NCBI GenBank assembly: GCA_937890845.1
Contig: CALADR010000255.1
Location: 1 to 54,679 of the forward strand
Length of the DNA stretch: 54,679 bases
DNA from: an uncultured Bacteroidales bacterium
GTDB lineage: Bacteria > Bacteroidota > Bacteroidia > Bacteroidales > UBA932
Direction: 5' to 3'
The notes beneath the pieces were generated by a model. It worked only from the letters and a program-made list of their open reading frames with translations. It was not told the origin of the DNA and did no database searches. Shown here piece by piece: positions 7,189 through 49,918 of the stretch. The translations under genes and the position numbers were made by a program. Positions within the stretch are counted from its first letter, which is position 1. The number at the start of each line of letters is the position of its first letter.

Positions 7189-7947
7189 ATGCTTAGGTTT
7201 GAAGATATAGTTTTCGGTCCGATACACAGCAGGCGGCTGGGCTCTTCATTGGGTGTGAACCTCCTGCCATCTAAAGGTAAACTGTGTAATTTCGACTGTG
7301 TGTATTGTGAGTGCGGATGGAACAGCGACGGCAGGGATGACAGGAAAATGCCGGATGCATCTGAAGTCAGAGCGGCAATGGAAGAAAAGTTTTCGCAGTT
7401 GGCTTATAATGGTGTGAAAATTGATTCCATTACATTTTCAGGCAACGGTGAGCCTACAATCAATCCTGATTTTTCTGAGATAATAGATATCACTCTGGAA
7501 CTCAGGGATAAATATCTGCCGGGAGCTGCAGTTTCAGTACTGTCTAACGCAACTCTTGCTGGACGTAAGGAGATCCGGGATGCGCTTATGAAAGTAGATA
7601 ATCCTATCTTGAAAATAGATGCCCCTACAGATGAGGGAGTCACAGTAGTGAACAAGCCATGTTTCCCATATAGCATCGAAGAGACAATCAGGCATTTGTC
7701 TGAGTTTGGCGGGAATTTTATCCTTCAGACGATGTTTATGAAATGGGAGAGGTCGGATTCTTCTGATCCTGAATGGCTTGCCGGCTGGATGGATATAGTG
7801 AGAAGGTTAAAGCCTCGTGAGATAATGGTCTATACATTGGACAGAGAAGCCCCGCAAAAAGGACTTGAAAAGTTTACAGTCAGTCAGATGGCTGATTTTG
7901 TCAGACCTCTGACTGATGAAGGGTATAATATTCAGATAAGAGGATGA
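7189..7947 (+). CDS. Radical SAM protein (COG0731/TYW1-like, function unknown)
   Basis: FGPIHSRRLGSSLGVN, CNFDCVYC (CxxxCxxC) and TFSGNGEPT; no SPASM extension. Confidence 0.88.
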   Translation: MLRFEDIVFGPIHSRRLGSSLGVNLLPSKGKLCNFDCVYCECGWNSDGRDDRKMPDASEVRAAMEEKFSQLAYNGVKIDSITFSGNGEPTINPDFSEIIDITLELRDKYLPGAAVSVLSNATLAGRKEIRDALMKVDNPILKIDAPTDEGVTVVNKPCFPYSIEETIRHLSEFGGNFILQTMFMKWERSDSSDPEWLAGWMDIVRRLKPREIMVYTLDREAPQKGLEKFTVSQMADFVRPLTDEGYNIQIRG

Positions 7948-41925: not shown

Positions 41926-44461
41926 ATGAGACAGATTGTTTATTTTATTGCAGTCATATTTTTAGTGGCACAAATGTCTTATTATGCTGAAGCGGGCTCT
42001 TCCGGAAGAAATTATTTCCGCAGTGGCTCGGAAGATAAAATTACTGTACTGAAAGGGAAAGTTCTTTCAGGATCGTCTCCTCTTGAATTTGTTACTGTCG
42101 CGCTTTCAGACTCCAGCGGTACTGTGATAGCGGGAGCTACGACAGATTCTGCAGGTGTTTATCGTATAGGATTCCCTTCCAGTGCAGGAGATTCCAGATA
42201 TTTGAAACTTCTTTTTTCACTTGTCGGCTATAAAGACAAAGTTATGGTTTTCCCGGATTCAGGTATTTCCGGTCAGGGTACTGCAGATATTGTAAGTATT
42301 GCTTCTTTAGATGGTGGAGTTGCGGTGATTTCCCCTGTATCAATGGAGGAGGATGCCCGGATGCTCTCGGAAGCGGTTGTCTCAGGCAAGCGTGCGCTAG
42401 TGGAGCATCAGTTTGATAGGCTGGTCCTGAATGTGTCGGAACTCGCTGTAGCTCAGACTGGTGATGCACTGGATGTCTTGAAAAGCTCACCGGGGGTTAC
42501 TGTTGATAAAGACGGAAATGTAAAACTTAACGGCTCCTCTGTAGCTGTGTGGATTGACGGAAGGCCGTCCAATATGTCAGGGGCTGATCTCGAGGCATTT
42601 CTTAAAGGCAGCGAAGGCTCTTCCATCGAAAAGGTGGAACTTATAACCAATCCGTCCGCAAAGTATGATGCAGAGGGAAGCGGAGGTATCATCAATATAA
42701 AGACGCGCAAGGCATTTATGAAAGGATTCAGCGGTTCGCTGAGGGCAAATTACGGAATGAGATTCTCTCCGAGAACTGTTTATTCCGGAGACTTTTCCGC
42801 AAATCTTATGTACAGGACTGACAAGACCAATACATCTTTTCAGTACAACCCTTCTTATGGAGAGTATGTCTATGGTGCTGATGAATGGAAAACATATGGT
42901 CCTGAAAACAGGATGCAGCAGGAAAGCAGCTCAATGAGCAAGACTGCCTACAATTCCCATCAGATACGCCTTGGAAATGACTGGAACATTTCCCCGAAAG
43001 ATGTGTTGGGAGTGATTTTTACTGCTACGGTTACTCCGGACAACAGGACATACTACATCGCTCCCAATATAATTAAGGACTATATTGCAAGTGAGTCTGG
43101 AAGCAGGCTTCCGTACAGCGAGCTTTCCGGGCAGAACAAATCCGTTTCCAAAAATGACTACTATTCGTTGAATGTAAATTATACCAGGACATTCGACCAG
43201 TCAAAGAGTCAGGAACTTACTCTCAATGCCGATTATTGGAGGAACGGAAGCAGAAGCGAGAGAATTTTCAGAAACGAATATACTTTCATTTCACCCGAAG
43301 CAGCGGCGGCAGGTGTTGCAAGTGAGGGGTTTGACGACAATATGCGCAGGATTCTGGACTTGTACTCTTTCAAGGCGGATTATTCACAGTCATTCTGGAA
43401 GCAGACAGGCAGGGTAGAGGCCGGAGTGAAGGCTGCCTGGTCATCTACCAGAAACCGTTACGGCAAATACGGTTACGACTTTTCTGCAGGAGAACTGGAC
43501 AAGAATGCCCGGCGCAATGACTTTGACTATGACGAGCAGGTGTATGCAGCCTATGTCAATTTAGCTAAAATGTTTTCTCCCAAATGGAATGCACAGATAG
43601 GCCTTAGGGGAGAATATACTCTTCAGGACGGAGACTGGCTTATGACTTCATCAGACGGGCGCAAGAGCCACAAGGAATATTTCGATGTATTCCCTAGTGC
43701 ATTTGTAAGTTATCTTCCTTCTCAGAAAGTAGTTCTTACGGCCAATTACTCATATAGGATATTCTTCCGGAACTCTGTATACGCAGGGAAATATGGAACT
43801 TGAGCCATCCTATAACCACAACGTATCAATGACGGCTGTGCTTTTCAGCCGGCTTTCACTTACGGCAGGGTATAGCAGGACAAAGAATTTCAGTGATGTC
43901 CAGACTCCTATGGTTGATGAGAACGGAGTGATGGGGCTTGTCTTTTCCAATGCCGGAAACTATCAGATGGGGTATTTTTCAGCCTCGCTCTCTGAGCTTC
44001 CTCTTACCAAATGGTGGAATCTTACAGTCAGCGCCAATTACGGATATTCCGAGTTCAGAGCGTACAAGTCCGCTGCTACAGATGCTTTCGGCGGACACTC
44101 TTTCAATGCCTATCTCGCCACAACATTCTTTCTTCCGAAAAATTTCAAGTTAGGTGCTGACGGCTGGGTGATGACACCTATGTCAATGGGTTATTTCGAT
44201 ATGAAGGCAATGGGAATCCTCAATATGAGCCTTATCAAGACCATTTGGGACGGGAAGGGAACTATATCATTGTATCTTAATGATATACTTAATACCGGAT
44301 CTACGGATATGCTTATAAAGAACAATGGTAAAGTGACCTATTCCCTTAGTCAGAAAATGTCAACGAGAGGCTTCCGTATAGGTTTTGCCTGGAGGTTCGG
44401 AACCGCATCCCAACAGAGCCGCCGCAATGTCGGGAAACTGGATGAAGAATCCCGCCTGTAG
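41926..44461 (+). CDS. TonB-dependent-receptor-like outer-membrane beta-barrel, split by a frameshift/deletion at about 43760
   Basis: Signal peptide, CarboxypepD-reg-like N-domain, plug motif SPGVTVD...IEKVELITNPSAKYDAEGSGGIINI, GLRGEYT, FPSAF; second frame continues GNMELEP...FAWRFG...EESRL. Confidence 0.8.
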
Positions 44462-44548
44462 ATACCGTCAGCCGAGTACAGGAATTTTATGTTGAAATAT
44501 TAGGAATAGAACAAAAGTTTGCTAAATTTACAGGCAAATTATTAGCCT

Positions 44549-44986
44549 ATGGCAGCTTTTCCGTACTATCGTCAGATGGATTCTATGGACTGTGGGCCTA
44601 CTTGTCTTAAAATTATTGCAAAATTTTACGGCAAGAATCATAGTCTTCAGAGTCTGCGTGAGAAGTGCCATATCACAAATGCAGGAGTTTCTCTTGCCGG
44701 AATAGCGGAAGTAGCTGAAAATATCGGTTTCAGAACCATCAGTTTGAAAATTAAATGGGAAGTATTCAGGGATGAAATTCCTTTGCCCTGTATAGTATAT
44801 TGGCAGCAGGCACATTTTGTAGTGGTATATGAAATCAAACGTCGTAAGAATAGATGTGAAGTGTTGGTTTCTGACCCGGCTATAGGTCTTCTGAAATATG
44901 ATGAAGAGGATTTTAAGAAAGGCTTAGGCAGTCAATATGGCATAGTTCCAAAAATGACAAGGATGAGCTTGTCAGAAATCGTGTAG
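44549..44986 (+). CDS. Peptidase C39 domain (N-terminus of a peptidase-containing ABC transporter), without transporter body
   Basis: QMDSMDCGPTCL (Q9, C15), GVSLAGI..AENIGF, LPCIVYWQQAHFVVVY (His), SDPA.G (Asp); similarity ends at about FKKG. Confidence 0.85.
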   Translation: MAAFPYYRQMDSMDCGPTCLKIIAKFYGKNHSLQSLREKCHITNAGVSLAGIAEVAENIGFRTISLKIKWEVFRDEIPLPCIVYWQQAHFVVVYEIKRRKNRCEVLVSDPAIGLLKYDEEDFKKGLGSQYGIVPKMTRMSLSEIV

Positions 44987-45014
44987 AAATATTAACCTCT
45001 TTAAATGTGATATT

Positions 45015-47289
45015 ATGATAAGAACGGTCATTACACTATTAGTATCTTTTTTGTGTATTAGCATATATGCGCAGGACACAAATACGGATAAGAAAGTTGA
45101 AATCATCGGAAGAGTTACGACCGCTGCCGATGCTGAGATTGAAGGGGCTGTCATTGTCGCCACCGGTGTCGGCGGTGTTGCCGGAGCTACGGTTACTGAT
45201 TCTACCGGAAAATTCACTGTTTCCGTAAGTCTTTGCGACAGTCTTGTCGTAGAAATTTCGCACCTTATTTATGAAGATAGGACAGTACTTTTGTCCGAGA
45301 TTTCCGCACCGGTTGATCTTGGAACCATTATTCTATCAGAAAAAAAGGAGTCTATACAGGAAGCGGTAGTAACCAGCAGTTTCATCAAGATGAGAGGTAC
45401 TGATATGCTTGTGGATGTCAAGGGAAATCCGGATGCAAAAGGCAAGAATGCTCTGCAGTTCCTGAATACTCTCCCGGGAATTAACGGTTTGCACATATAT
45501 GGTCAGGGACTCTCAAAAGTATATATAAATGACAGGGAACTTAAGCTTCCTAATGATCAGCTCTACAGCTATGTTGCCAGTCTGAAGGCTGAAGATGTGC
45601 AGTCAATACAGATTGTGACCAGAAAAGGAGCCAAATATGAGGCCGGTCATAAGGGAGGTGTGATACGTATAAGGATGAGTAAATCAGATAACAAGAGGCT
45701 CTCCGGAACTCTTTCGGTCCCGGTTTCTGTAAATACCTATGACGGGGCAATAACGACAGATATTCCGTTCATGCTTAACTATACGAACGGAAAACTTTCT
45801 TCCTATACATTTGCGAGCTTCCACTATATGCAAAATGAGAATACAAACTCCAGACAGATTTATGAGAATCGGGAGGAATGGAGCAAATCAGACAGGACCT
45901 TTATGTCAATGATGCTGGATCAGAGCCTTATATATGACATATCAAAGCGACACTCCTTAGGCCTTGCCTTGAATGGCTTCTTCAAGCCTTTTGAAAGAGG
46001 AGGGGCAACGAGTTCTTCATATACGACAAACGATGAGATAACCTTGGGTACAGGAAATGCGACGCTTACATACGACTGGAATATAGGAGACAGAGGGTCG
46101 AATATTTCATTTGCCGGGGACTATATGTACAGCAGAGACAAATACACCAATATATATGAAAGCAGCTCTGATTATGAAAAAAACACTTCGGGCACTGACA
46201 AGAATACATATTCCGTAAAACTGGATGGAGAATATATCTTCAAGGACGAGATTTCGACACTGGGCGGAGGACTTTTCTACTTGGGAATGGATGCAGGCGA
46301 GGATTTCAGTCAGGCAAATGTGTCAAGCCGATTTGATTACAATGAAGCGATTTACGGAGCTTACGTAGATTTTTATTCTTCGTTTTTAGACGAATCCCTC
46401 GACCTTGAATTGGGACTTCGTTACGAAAGTTCCGATATTACGTGGAAGTATTCAGAAAACATAAATGACAGAGTGGGAAATTCTGACAGGCATAACAGCT
46501 TTTTCCCTACAGCATCACTTTCATACTTTTATCCTAATGGAAAGCATTATACATCATTGAGTTATGAGCGTTATATTGACAGACCTACCATGCTTTCATA
46601 CGATCCTGCCACATATAGAAGCGGAGACTGGAAGTTTTCGCAGGGAGCCATTTACCTGAAACCGGAGTTTGAGAACAGTCTTTCTTTGACACATACTATT
46701 AACAGCAGCCATACCCTGTCGCTGTCATATATCTGGACCAAAGACATATATGAAAGAAAACGGAAACCTTATAGTGACGGAAGACAATGTAGGTTCTTCA
46801 AGGAAAGCTGAGCTCTATGCAAATACTAAATTCTGGCTTGTAAAGAAATGGCTGTACGCGCGTCTGACCGGAATATTTGACTATACAGGCTATATCAGTA
46901 AGGATTATGGCAACACTGATACATTCAATGCATATCTTTTTGCCAACCTTAATCTTTATCTGCCTAAGTCTTGGGCAATAGGCGTCAGCGGACACTATAG
47001 GTCGCCCAGCCTCTCCCCTACACAAAGGTATTCACATAGATATGGACTGGATGCTGCAATAAGCAAGTCGATAAATAAAAAAATCACACTGTCTCTCAGT
47101 GCGAGGAATATACTCAACAACGATTTTACGATGACATCAAGAATAAGCGGTGTGAATTACGAATATACCAAACACAGTAATTTCAGTACGGTAACACTAA
47201 CATTTGCCTATAACTTCGGTGTGTCCAACTTCTATGCAAAGAAGGCACACGGCAACAGTGATGTGCGTGAAAGAAGCAGCGGGAGATAG
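45015..47289 (+). CDS. Second outer-membrane beta-barrel protein, split by a frameshift at about 46750
   Basis: Signal peptide, VTDSTGKF CarboxypepD-reg-like domain, LNTLPGI...GAKYEAG..GGVIRI plug-like motif, LGLRYE, FFPTASL, LKPEF; second frame ends NILN...FAYNFG...VRERSSGR. Confidence 0.75.
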
Positions 47290-47302
47290 GCTATACCTTA
47301 AA

Positions 47303-47550
47303 ATGAACTTTATTATGGAGTAAGCCGAAAAGCCATTGCCATTCTCTCTCCCGAAGAAAGGAATAACACTTTAGGAGGAGAAATAAATGATGTAAGCAGA
47401 GCAAATGAAGAATGTTCTAACAATGAGGTTTGCAGGCGTAATGGTTATTGCGCAAATAATAAAGGCAAGTGCATTGGGAATGGTCGGTGTGTAGATGATA
47501 TTATCATTATACCTCCAACAAACCCGGCAAATTGTTTTTGTCAAGTTTAG
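47303..47550 (+). CDS. Putative RiPP/bacteriocin precursor: double-Gly leader plus Cys/Asn-repeat core (start needs a 1-nt correction)
   Basis: Not in the ORF track. Frame 47302-47550 reads NELYYGVSRKAIAILSPEERNNTLGG|EINDVSRANEECSNNEVCRRNGYCANNKGKCIGNGRCVDDIIIIPPTNPANCFCQV*. The nearest ATG (47303) is out of frame by one base. Confidence 0.72.
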
Positions 47551-47585
47551 TGAAACTTAGTGTTTCGCGATTTTTTCTATTAAAG

Positions 47586-47637
47586 CGTTGAAATGAAGGA
47601 GATTAGTGACATGTCACTAATCTCCTTCATTTCAACG
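47586..47637. repeat. Perfect 52-bp palindrome (probable bidirectional terminator / cassette boundary)
   Basis: CGTTGAAATGAAGGAGATTAGTGACA|TGTCACTAATCTCCTTCATTTCAACG is its own reverse complement. Confidence 0.9.
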
Positions 47638-48388
47638 TGAGTTCGACAGGGCAGTGGTCGGAGCCGAAGATTTCGTTATGGATGGATGCTCCTTCAAGCC
47701 TGTCTTTCAATCCTTTGGAGACAAGGAAGTAGTCAATGCGCCAGCCTGCGTTCTTCTCTCGTGAACGGAATCGGTATGACCACCAGGAGTAAATCCCTTC
47801 GGCATCAGGATAGAAGTGACGGAATGTATCCGTAAACCCGCTGTCAAGCAGTATTGAAAACTTCTCCCTTTCCTCATCGGTGAACCCTGCGTTCCTTCTG
47901 TTGGTCTTAGGGTTCTTGAGGTCTATTTCCTTGTGGGCTACGTTGAGGTCACCGCAGACAATTACCGGTTTCGTCTTTTCCAGAGAAAGGAGGTAGTTTC
48001 TGAAGTCATCCCCCCATTTCATCCTGTATTCCAGCCTGGCCAGTTCATCCTGCGAGTTCGGTGTATAGACATTCACCAGATAGAAATCTTCCATTTCCAG
48101 GGTTATTACCCTGCCTTCGTGGTCGTGCTCGTCTATCCCTATGCCGTAACTTACTGACAAAGGCTCTTTTCTTGTGAAAATGGCTGTGCCGGAATATCCT
48201 TTTTTATCTGCATAGTTCCAGTATGACCTGTATCCCTCGAAGACGGCATCCAGCTGTCCTGCCTGCATTTTGGTTTCCTGAAGGCAGAAGAAGTCGGCGT
48301 CAAGAGTCTTGAAACTTTCCTGAAAACCTTTTGTGTAGCAGGCTCTAAGCCCGTTTACATTCCATGATATGAATTTTAAAGGCTCCAT
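47627..48388 (-). CDS. xth: Exodeoxyribonuclease III (ExoA/Xth)
   Basis: [52 protein letters not shown]; own ATG at 48388; 253 aa. Confidence 0.93.
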
Positions 48389-49918
48389 TCTGTTCCGTCT
48401 TTTGTGTTCCTTGAGAGTGTCGCGGATTCTGTCGCTGGCAGCCCAGTCTTTGGCTTCCTTGGCAGCCTTGCGGCTTTCAAGTACCATTCCCATAAGTCCG
48501 TCAATCACTTTTTCCGCCTTTCCGCCTGCCGCTTCCTCATCTACGAGTCCTAAAACTCCGGAAACGATATCGTCAAACAGTCTGAGAAGTGCTGTCAGGT
48601 CGTTTTTGTCAAATGTGCGTTTCTTGTCCTTGGCTGCATTGATGAGTCTCACTGCATCAAACAGCTGGGCTACTGCAACAGGTGTATTGAGGTCATCGCA
48701 GAGTGCTTCATATACTTTTTCGCAGATAGCATTGACTTCGGCAGATGCGCTGTTGCAGACCTCCGGTGCGACATCGGTTATGAATTCGCCGTATGAAAGT
48801 GCTGATGCACTATGGCCGCCTGTCCCTTTTACGTCAGATGATATTCCTGCAGACGCAGCCATTTCCCTCAGGTCTTTTGCTGCCTGCATTATTTTCCTGT
48901 ATCCTTTTTCCGCTGCCTGAAGTGCTTCGTTGCTGAAGTCCAGAGTGCTGCGGTAGTGGGCCTGAAGAATGAAGAAACGGATGGTCATAGGGCTGTATGC
49001 CTGCTCAAGAAGCTTGTGGGTTCCTTCAAACAGTTCCTGTAGGGTGATGAAGTTGCCCAAGGATTTTCCCATCTTCTTTCCGTTGATGGTTATCATATTG
49101 TTGTGCATCCAGTATTTCACTCCTCCTGTGCCTCTTGATGCAGTGTTCTGCGCAAGCTCGCATTCGTGGTGAGGGAACATAAGGTCCATTCCGCCTCCGT
49201 GTATGTCAAACTCTGTTCCCAGGTACTTTTCGCTCATTGCGGAGCATTCCAGATGCCATCCCGGGAAACCTTCGCTCCAAGGAGACGGCCATTTCATTAT
49301 ATGTTCAGGTGAAGCCTTCTTCCACAATGCAAAGTCGTATGGCGCGTGCTTGTCGCTCTGTCCGTCAAGCTCCCTTGTACCCTCCTTTGTCTCGTCAAGA
49401 GTCCTTCCTGAAAGGATACCGTATCTGTGGTCCGCATCGTACTTCCTTACATCAAAATATACGGACCCGTTGCTGATGTAGGCATAGCCTGAGTCAAGGA
49501 TTTTCCTTACAAGGTCTATCTGCTCGATTATATGGCCTGATGCCCTCGGCTCGATTGAAGGCGGTGCTACATTCAGCATCCTCATGGCTTCGTGGTAGCG
49601 TAGCGTGTATGTCTGCACCACTTCCATAGGCTCCAGCTGCTCCAGTCTTGCCTTTTTTGCGATCTTGTCTTCTCCTTCGTCGGCATCGTGCTCAAGATGC
49701 CCTACATCTGTTATGTTCCTGACATAGCGTACTTTATATCCCAAATGTCTGAGAAGGCGTACCAGCACATCGTATGTAACTCCAGGTCTTGCGTGTCCCA
49801 GATGGGCGTCGCCATAGACAGTCGGTCCGCATACGTAAAGTCCCACGTGGTCCTTGTTTATCGGCTCGAAAAGCACTTTCATTCTGGAAAGCGTATCAGT
49901 TATATAAAAATTTCTCAT
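48376..49918 (-). CDS. cysS: Cysteine--tRNA ligase (frameshift near the C-terminus at about 48406)
   Basis: [44 protein letters not shown]; native ending TKDGTEWSL* lies in another frame at 48405-48376; -7 box TAACTTTG 49995-49988. Confidence 0.93.

Follow-up and report, generated by a model that had tools for sequence, protein, structure and literature searches.

An open frame of Asn-x-x-Cys hexads in an uncultured Bacteroidales bacterium: a probably degenerate member of a rare predicted peptide precursor family

Introduction

The window analyzed here, a 54,679-nucleotide stretch of DNA from an uncultured Bacteroidales bacterium of the canine gut (contig CALADR010000255.1), contains an open frame that has the look of a cysteine-rich peptide precursor and yet lacks a start codon. 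The question that it raises is whether such a frame is a working gene, the remains of one, or an accident of sequence or assembly. A sequence-only reading of the same DNA had taken it for the precursor of a multiply cross-linked RiPP of a family that it could not name, with a double-glycine (GG) leader of the kind cleaved by C39 peptidases and a core built of Asn-x-x-Cys (NxxC) motifs. The precedent for the latter is NxxcB of streptococci, which joins the Cys sulfur of an NxxC motif to the C-beta of its Asn in a beta-thioether, as described in the text of PMC9389541. Here, we examine the frame, its relatives, the genes that accompany both, and independent assemblies of the locus, and weigh the explanations that they allow.

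Results

The open frame in the window

All features of the window lie on the forward strand unless stated otherwise. Translation of positions 47302-47550 gives 82 residues and a stop codon. The frame opens directly past a TAA at 47299-47301 and contains no in-frame ATG, GTG or TTG, and is therefore missing from the list of open reading frames (ORFs). The only nearby ATG, at 47303, lies one base off the reading frame of the peptide and begins a mini-ORF, MNFIME followed by a stop (47303-47323); this ATG may have been the original start before it fell out of frame. The first 13 codons, NELYYGVSRKAIA (47302-47340), include no start codon and are unlike the leader of the family described below. 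They are followed by the kept second half of a leader, ILSPEERNNTLGG (47341-47379), with putative C39 cleavage after its GG, and then by a 56-residue core (47380-47547) that is made up of five N-x-x(-x)-C hexads at 47404-47490 and a C-terminal tail with two further Cys. Within the core, Cys residues occupy positions 12, 18, 24, 31, 37, 52 and 54, with Asn three residues upstream of those at 12, 18, 24 and 37 and four residues upstream of that at 31. Regarding the frame, the GG leader and the Cys/Asn spacing, the sequence-only reading was accurate. No Ser or Thr follows the Asn in N-x-S/T fashion in the hexads of the window core.

The frame starts 12 nt past the stop codon of an outer-membrane gene and finishes in a terminator-like hairpin with a T-run (47550-47578) that overlaps the final base of its own stop codon; two such terminator-like sites were found, compared with 0.4 expected in shuffles. 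Further downstream, between the peptide frame and a convergent exonuclease gene, is a 52-nt near-perfect palindrome (47586-47637) that is matched inverted, at 51 of 52 positions, in an independent metagenome contig (L019, 2083-2134). This palindrome is probably a bidirectional terminator.

A predicted family of NxxC-hexad precursors

A word-indexed search of 5.8 billion proteins found only one relative, P0002, a 94-residue protein encoded on five contigs of other assemblies. In a BLASTP alignment P0002 is identical to the window frame across the last 69 residues, differing before them, such that ILSPEERNNTLGG and the entire core (100%) are shared. Its leader is complete, with an ATG, and starts MKHSDFFKAIEPLSEDDGTLSGGFV.... 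A HMMER search of 1.84 billion representatives returned 14 matches at E≤1e-3, 11 of which (P0002 and ten others) are small peptides of the NxxC-hexad type; intact members are 70-98 residues long. The remaining three matches, P0003, P0006 and P0012, are unrelated Cys-rich or repeat proteins and were dropped from the family, and two further members, P0016 and P0017, were recovered by a profile search.

Alignment of the family (A1; 12 rows, 29-45% identical to the first row, with the exception of the window's own copy) shows that the invariant columns are L27 and N47, C50, N53, C56, N59, C62, N65, C69, N72 and C75, which include every Asn and every Cys of the five hexads, and that M1, G18, F24, E31, G37 and G38 are conserved at 90% or above. 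This conservation therefore defines a leader in two parts, G-x-(L/M/F)-x-GGF first and L-x-x-x-E-(M/L)-x-x-x-x-GG second, ahead of the five NxxC hexads. Several hexads among the members take the form N-x-S/T-C, and the Asn at -3 of Cys is invariant in A1 regardless of whether Ser or Thr follows it. In most members the number of Cys is odd (five).

All ten of the invariant N/C columns are found in the window frame, and its ILSPEERNNTLGG aligns with the second part of the leader at L27, E31, G37 and G38, with R in the M/L position. What the window frame misses is the N-proximal motif G-x-(L/M/F)-x-G-G-F, reading GVSRKAI(A) where P0002 reads GTLSGGF(V); GGF occurs in 12 of 14 further members that were read. 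By sequence, the window frame is a genuine member of an uncurated, predicted precursor family of the Bacteroidota, and both the GG-leader precursor and the conserved N/C spacing that had been proposed are seen in the HMMER homologs and in A1.

The family is covered by no Pfam or NCBIfam model. None of the NCBIfam models matched P0001, P0002 or their relatives, and TIGR04149 matched neither P0001 nor P0002, even when the latter was tried up to E≤10. The only Pfam match, to EGF at E 0.008-0.015, is below the cut-off and was dismissed as Cys-spacing noise. TIGR01847 (bacteriocin_sig) reached 13.5 bits against the relative P0004, the cut-off being 15.7, and did not match P0001 or P0002 although GG is present. 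When AlphaFold2 was applied to A1, the mean pLDDT was 53 and the pTM 0.25; the unmodified precursor thus has no confident fold, and the autonomous solenoid that the hexads might call to mind is unsupported. In the ESM Atlas, the best score of P0002 was 0.86 (to QhpC clusters), below the 0.9 bar, and TM scores in the structure comparison were ≤0.36, making these matches leads only.

Judged from searches of genomes, the family is rare in the Bacteroidota. P0002 has no credible match in 60 relatives (best E 0.016), and neither P0002 nor P0017 was found in the GTDB species genomes. Across the class and the order (400 genomes each), the A1 profile returned only the window's own genome (G000), and 400 genomes of the family gave a single credible match. 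It is in G559, a MAG assigned to Candidatus Merdivivens (Muribaculaceae). The genus of G559 likewise gave one match in four genomes, at the same locus. Weak matches in G550 and G926 (E 0.002-0.004, with a stop inside each) were not accepted, there being no NxxC-type small ORF at either. Members in the databases derive from metagenome assemblies and mostly from one contig each.

Radical SAM maturases and the operons of relatives

The family member in G559, the frame of which reads ...QPLSHDEQGKLLGGF...NNNHCSGNGDCVGNETCHNNKPQC..., is followed directly downstream by a gene for a 427-residue radical SAM (rSAM)/SPASM protein. RiPP maturases are its best matches in NCBIfam, with TIGR04463 (3.5e-44) ahead of the Clo7bot, geopeptide, CefB and PapB models, and all of these maturase matches are under the curated cut-offs (for TIGR04463, 151 bits against 525). 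TIGR03906 matches the same enzyme at 3.2e-24 and TIGR04148 at 3.6e-9. Its best solved relative is PDB 5wgg (2e-13), an entry titled 'Radical SAM domain protein' that we take to be CteB. Among the members read from genomes only that of G559 shows such a neighbor, and G559 is thus the single genome behind the rSAM link of the two-GG subfamily. Like the window frame, the G559 member (L065, 123-401) is without an in-frame ATG, GTG or TTG, and an in-frame TAA parts it from an upstream, ATG-started MPKWWHKELLKKF. Both genome-derived copies of the two-GG subfamily lack a start and so look interrupted.

Relatives of the G559 enzyme were located at 41 loci in GTDB species genomes, and the loci were scanned with HMMs and regular expressions on six-frame translations. 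A GGF-leader peptide with four to eight NxxC motifs adjoins the rSAM gene at all seven of the closest loci, L065-L071; identity to the G559 enzyme is 100% at L065, which is the G559 locus itself, and 34-39% at the remaining six. At L066, L067, L070 and L071 there are seven or eight motifs, nearly all of them in consecutive hexads. The prediction that homologs would have rSAM-SPASM neighbors therefore held, both for the maturase gene adjoining the G559 member and for those beside the GGF-leader NxxC peptides of related loci. NxxC motifs are fewer behind the GGF leaders of remoter loci such as those of Tenacibaculum and Aureivirga, and at other remoter loci the crude filter that was used picked up different Cys-rich GG peptides or none. 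At four Tenacibaculum loci (L074, L078, L079 and L080) the homologous rSAM gene is preceded by two or three GGF-leader peptides in tandem, each with a second GG and a short Cys-rich core.

Pfam annotation of the operons was performed for eight loci. At L068 and L070 the gene order is a double GT2 gene (~800 aa), the rSAM gene, the precursor, a CarboxypepD_reg/OMP_b-brl_3 gene (~920 aa) and a peptidase-containing transporter (PCAT). The order is the same at L066, with no C39 match at the PCAT position, and at L067, with an extra outer-membrane gene (two in all) and a second precursor; at L071 it is partial or varied. The ~800-aa double GT2 gene precedes the rSAM gene at L066, L067, L068, L070 and L071. 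Hosts of these five loci are Bacteroides and Bacteroidales MAGs. Intact PCATs are found in the related operons L068, L070 and L098, weak matches to hexapeptide-repeat acyltransferases at L066, and no pseudo-rSAM gene in any of the annotated NxxC operons.

Export genes beside the window frame and their lesions

Upstream of the window frame are outer-membrane gene 1 (41926-44461; CarboxypepD_reg, Plug and OMP_b-brl_3), a C39 peptidase domain of 145 residues without a transporter part (44549-44986; PF03412, 2.3e-32), which we refer to as the PCAT stub, and outer-membrane gene 2 (45015-47289; CarboxypepD_reg and OMP_b-brl_3). With two OMP_b-brl_3 genes and a C39 domain by the frame, the window therefore has the export part of a cluster like the NxxC operons. 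Both outer-membrane genes are split, the first into ORFs at 41926-43803 and 43793-44461 (PF14905, 3.9e-36 and 8.4e-36) and the second into ORFs at 45015-46811 and 46750-47289 (PF14905, 2.6e-25 and 3.5e-20).

The C39 context that had been proposed for cleavage of the leader is thus present beside the frame, but a complete PCAT, consisting of C39, ABC membrane and ATPase parts, is not, the C39 domain being all that there is. The best NCBIfam matches of the stub are to the N-terminal 120 residues of 700-aa PCAT models, and the Cys, His and Asp positions are kept, as judged by eye. It is the only C39 match in G000, and no transporter or membrane-fusion partner for it was found in the window strain. 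Homologs of the stub in the genus are 51-63% identical and form part of 728-754-aa frames, which in those read precede an HlyD-like gene. In one genus relative (G015; L049, 1501-3371) the PCAT has come apart into three ORFs (167, 216 and 228 aa), and a broken PCAT is thus not confined to the window strain within the genus.

No rSAM/SPASM gene was found from 37 kb to the end of the window, and a search of G000 with the G559 enzyme returned no ortholog, only an anaerobic sulfatase maturase (E 2.7e-4, 25% identity). G000 has 12 Radical_SAM matches, 11 of which score as housekeeping or other non-RiPP families, namely MiaB, MtaB, PflA, BioB, HemW, anSME, a partial TIGR04133 protein, RlmN, NrdG, ThiH and MnmL/YtqA. 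The twelfth is a 252-aa protein encoded at window positions 7189-7947 that has weak NCBIfam matches (viperin-like, 2e-7) and no clear family; its length falls short of that of a SPASM maturase, and its gene is 40 kb from the peptide. As G000 is 85% complete, absence of the maturase is not proven, and the gene could be unassembled.

Comparison with other assemblies

The locus was compared with L019, with contigs of the DNA runs X2, X6 and X10, which come from three studies, and with contigs of an RNA-library run, X19. Relative to X2, X6 and X10, the window is short by ~41 nt at 43760, 18 nt at 44090, 14 nt near 46750-46754 and 20 nt at 48405. The insert at 43759-43761 (38 unaligned letters, net ~41) is found in all four runs, the three DNA runs share the 18 letters at 44090, and L019 confirms the 14 nt near 46750-46754 and the 20 nt at 48405; outer-membrane gene 2 is intact in L019. 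Every other assembly that covers 43760, 44090, 46750 or 48405 has the segment in question. The absence of these segments from the window contig reflects either deletion in this strain or an artefact in the assembly of this MAG, and not slippage at homopolymers. X6 and X10 have single-base insertions of their own in the outer-membrane genes (46176, 47076 and 42946). Downstream of the peptide, a 763-aa ORF on the reverse strand (47627-49918) fuses cysteinyl-tRNA synthetase to an exonuclease III-like protein. In L019 and the run contigs these two genes are kept apart by 20 additional bases at 48405, and the fusion is therefore due to a gap peculiar to the window contig.

X2 and X10 contain ~3.0 kb of extra DNA at 44941-44948, the end of the C39 ORF, that is absent from X6. 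By analogy with the genus loci, this could be the missing PCAT body and an HlyD-like gene. Among longer proteins, however, no PCAT exceeded 68% identity to the stub, and the C-terminal tail of the stub is unlike HlyD-like C-termini; a mobile-element insertion flanked by eight shared bases is therefore equally possible. The extra DNA may be a transporter body that the window strain has lost or, just as possibly, an insertion that the others have gained. A contig of X19 joins 44460 to 47626 with 52 other letters between them, which indicates a close relative without the whole cassette of C39 domain, outer-membrane gene 2 and peptide, through accessory insertion or deletion. Contigs of X19 also cover parts of 46797-47701, and contigs of this sort do not show transcription. 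The comparison marks the locus as accessory, with different lesions in different strains.

Discussion

A degenerate copy and the system that it would belong to

We think it rather probable that the window frame is a true copy, though a degenerate one, of a rare RiPP precursor of the Bacteroidota, and that the system to which it belonged has decayed in this genome. Its start and the GGF half of its leader are lost, its maturase was not found, its PCAT is a stub and both outer-membrane genes are frameshifted; therefore, the peptide is most likely not produced here, and its function presumably has been lost. The frame is open over 82 codons through a core that is identical in protein to P0002, the lone variant is synonymous, and a terminator-like hairpin stands at the end. 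An open and conserved core would fit a gene that is under selection or one that was broken only recently.

In intact members, the GGF part of the leader would dock an rSAM/SPASM maturase of the ranthipeptide-synthase type, which would link each Cys sulfur to the Asn three residues upstream and create a ladder of small thioether rings. The C39 domain of the PCAT would cut after GG and export the product, and the OMP_b-brl_3 protein encoded in the cluster would be the likely outer-membrane component. We infer the Cys-Asn cross-link, by analogy, from the fact that Asn and Cys are invariant in pairs, from the number of Cys, which is odd (five) in most members, and from the NxxcB precedent; GG cleavage and the role of the OMP_b-brl_3 protein are suggested because gene order is conserved and because Bacteroidales RiPP clusters share a logic of PCAT, membrane-fusion protein (MFP) and outer-membrane protein (OMP). 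Taken to its full extent, the proposal would be of an undescribed ranthipeptide-like class of the Bacteroidota, in which five to eight Asn-x-x-Cys hexads become four-residue Cys-Asn thioether rings, with recognition through GGF, further decoration by a double GT2 enzyme in the larger operons and export through a PCAT and a dedicated OMP_b-brl_3 protein, and of which the window holds a recently inactivated member. We offer this fuller version tentatively, as something possible rather than probable.

A family that is real could use its Asn and Cys differently, for other rSAM chemistry, for glycosylation by the GT2 enzyme of the larger operons, or for a beta-helix held by disulfides or an Asn ladder, and this we consider rather unlikely. 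The double GT2 gene that precedes the rSAM gene at five loci and the several N-x-S/T-C hexads would suit glycosylation, but the Asn at -3 is invariant with or without Ser or Thr, and the window core has neither in that place. The weak matches to hexapeptide-repeat acyltransferases at L066 also count in favor of a different use. AlphaFold2 gave no confident structure, and an all-disulfide fold is difficult to reconcile with an odd number of Cys in most members. That all maturase matches are under their family cut-offs leaves room for another chemistry; however, the only characterized NxxC enzyme, as far as the text of PMC9389541 goes, joins Cys to Asn. It is improbable, in our estimation, that the window copy is still expressed, from a non-canonical start or by coupling to the upstream gene, to give a short-leader GG peptide that is unmodified or modified in trans and is cut by the free C39 domain. 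In favor of expression are a conserved open core with only a synonymous variant, a stub that keeps its Cys, His and Asp positions by eye, a terminator-like hairpin that closes the unit, and the placement of the frame 12 nt past the stop of outer-membrane gene 2, with which it would be co-transcribed. Nevertheless, the frame has no ATG, GTG or TTG and has lost a near-invariant GGF, the stub is without a transporter or membrane-fusion partner in this strain, and outer-membrane gene 2, to which the frame would be coupled, is itself frameshifted.

A one-base sequencing or assembly error that hides a normal ATG start would restore the gene most simply, and the sequence-only reading had pointed out that one extra base after the ATG at 47303 would bring it into frame. 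The arithmetic is right, and the window contig does have other gaps relative to independent assemblies. However, the start of the frame has the same letters in L019, X2 and X6 and no indel in X10; the X2 and X6 contigs span it, with all listed differences elsewhere, and the sole variant that the contigs show in the core is 47430 T>C (GTT/GTC, Val). With the same letters in independent assemblies the missing start is not an assembly slip, and a restored N-terminus would still be without the GGF of the family, making an error of this kind very improbable. By eye, no slippery site for programmed frameshifting is apparent between the ATG at 47303 and the TAA at 47321. That the frame is open by chance, with a fortuitous Cys/Asn pattern, is scarcely credible: it does lack a start codon, a Pfam or NCBIfam family and a homolog in 60 relatives, as a chance frame would, but chance would not provide homologs with ten invariant N/C columns, or P0002 with 69 identical residues. 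The degenerate precursor copy is accordingly the reading that we retain.

Relation to known systems

To our knowledge, radical SAM thioether peptides come almost only from Gram-positives, and the NxxC reaction from a single streptococcal enzyme. The novelty lies in the family, which is of the ranthipeptide/NxxC kind, and not in the window locus, a decaying remnant that should be annotated as a pseudogene. If the proposed chemistry is true, a Bacteroidota multi-NxxC array would extend thioether chemistry to gut and marine Gram-negatives. The family offers testable substrate-enzyme pairs (G559, L066-L071) with a conserved leader motif and operon order, and bears on how Bacteroidota pass such peptides across the outer membrane.

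The family shares with NxxcA/NxxcB an Asn-x-x-Cys motif in a small precursor, a likeness of motif, and differs from that pair in its strict hexad array of five to eight NxxC units, its Bacteroidota hosts, its leader with both GGF and GG, and its PCAT and OMP_b-brl_3 genes. It resembles the ranthipeptide systems (PapB, CteB and CefB types; freyrasin, thermocellin/SCIFF) in its repeated Cys cores and in that the G559 neighbor and its relatives score best against these maturase models and against 5wgg. The repeat of freyrasin is Cys-x3-Asp. Unlike in those systems, the repeat here is NxxC, the scores are far under the cut-offs, and the hosts are Gram-negative with outer-membrane genes. QhpC is a small Cys-rich peptide, the gamma subunit of quinohemoprotein amine dehydrogenase, that is cross-linked by a SPASM enzyme, the rSAM protein QhpD. 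It is the nearest language-model neighbor of P0002, which at the score given above is a lead only, and TIGR03906 is among the matches of the G559 enzyme; in contrast to QhpC/QhpD, there is no dehydrogenase context here.

In the full-text literature we found no description of a Bacteroidota NxxC-hexad precursor, and the supplements of surveys (e.g., PMC10288494) may list such clusters. Bacteroidales RiPP clusters with PCAT, MFP and OMP genes and GG-motif precursors have been reported (PMC10352776, Front Microbiol 2023). The export logic and GG-motif precursors of those clusters are like the ones seen here, whereas no NxxC-hexad precursor appears in the text describing them. The GG-Bacteroidales rSAM system (TIGR04148 maturase, TIGR04149 precursor and TIGR04150 pseudo-rSAM) is similar in combining GG-leader peptides with rSAM, PCAT, HlyD-like and large outer-membrane proteins. 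It is set apart by the failure of TIGR04149 to match P0001 or P0002, by the modest TIGR04148 match of the G559 enzyme, and by its pseudo-rSAM, which has no counterpart in the annotated NxxC operons. Loci of the GG-Bacteroidales rSAM type do occur in the same genus, as recognized by eye from ORF translations.
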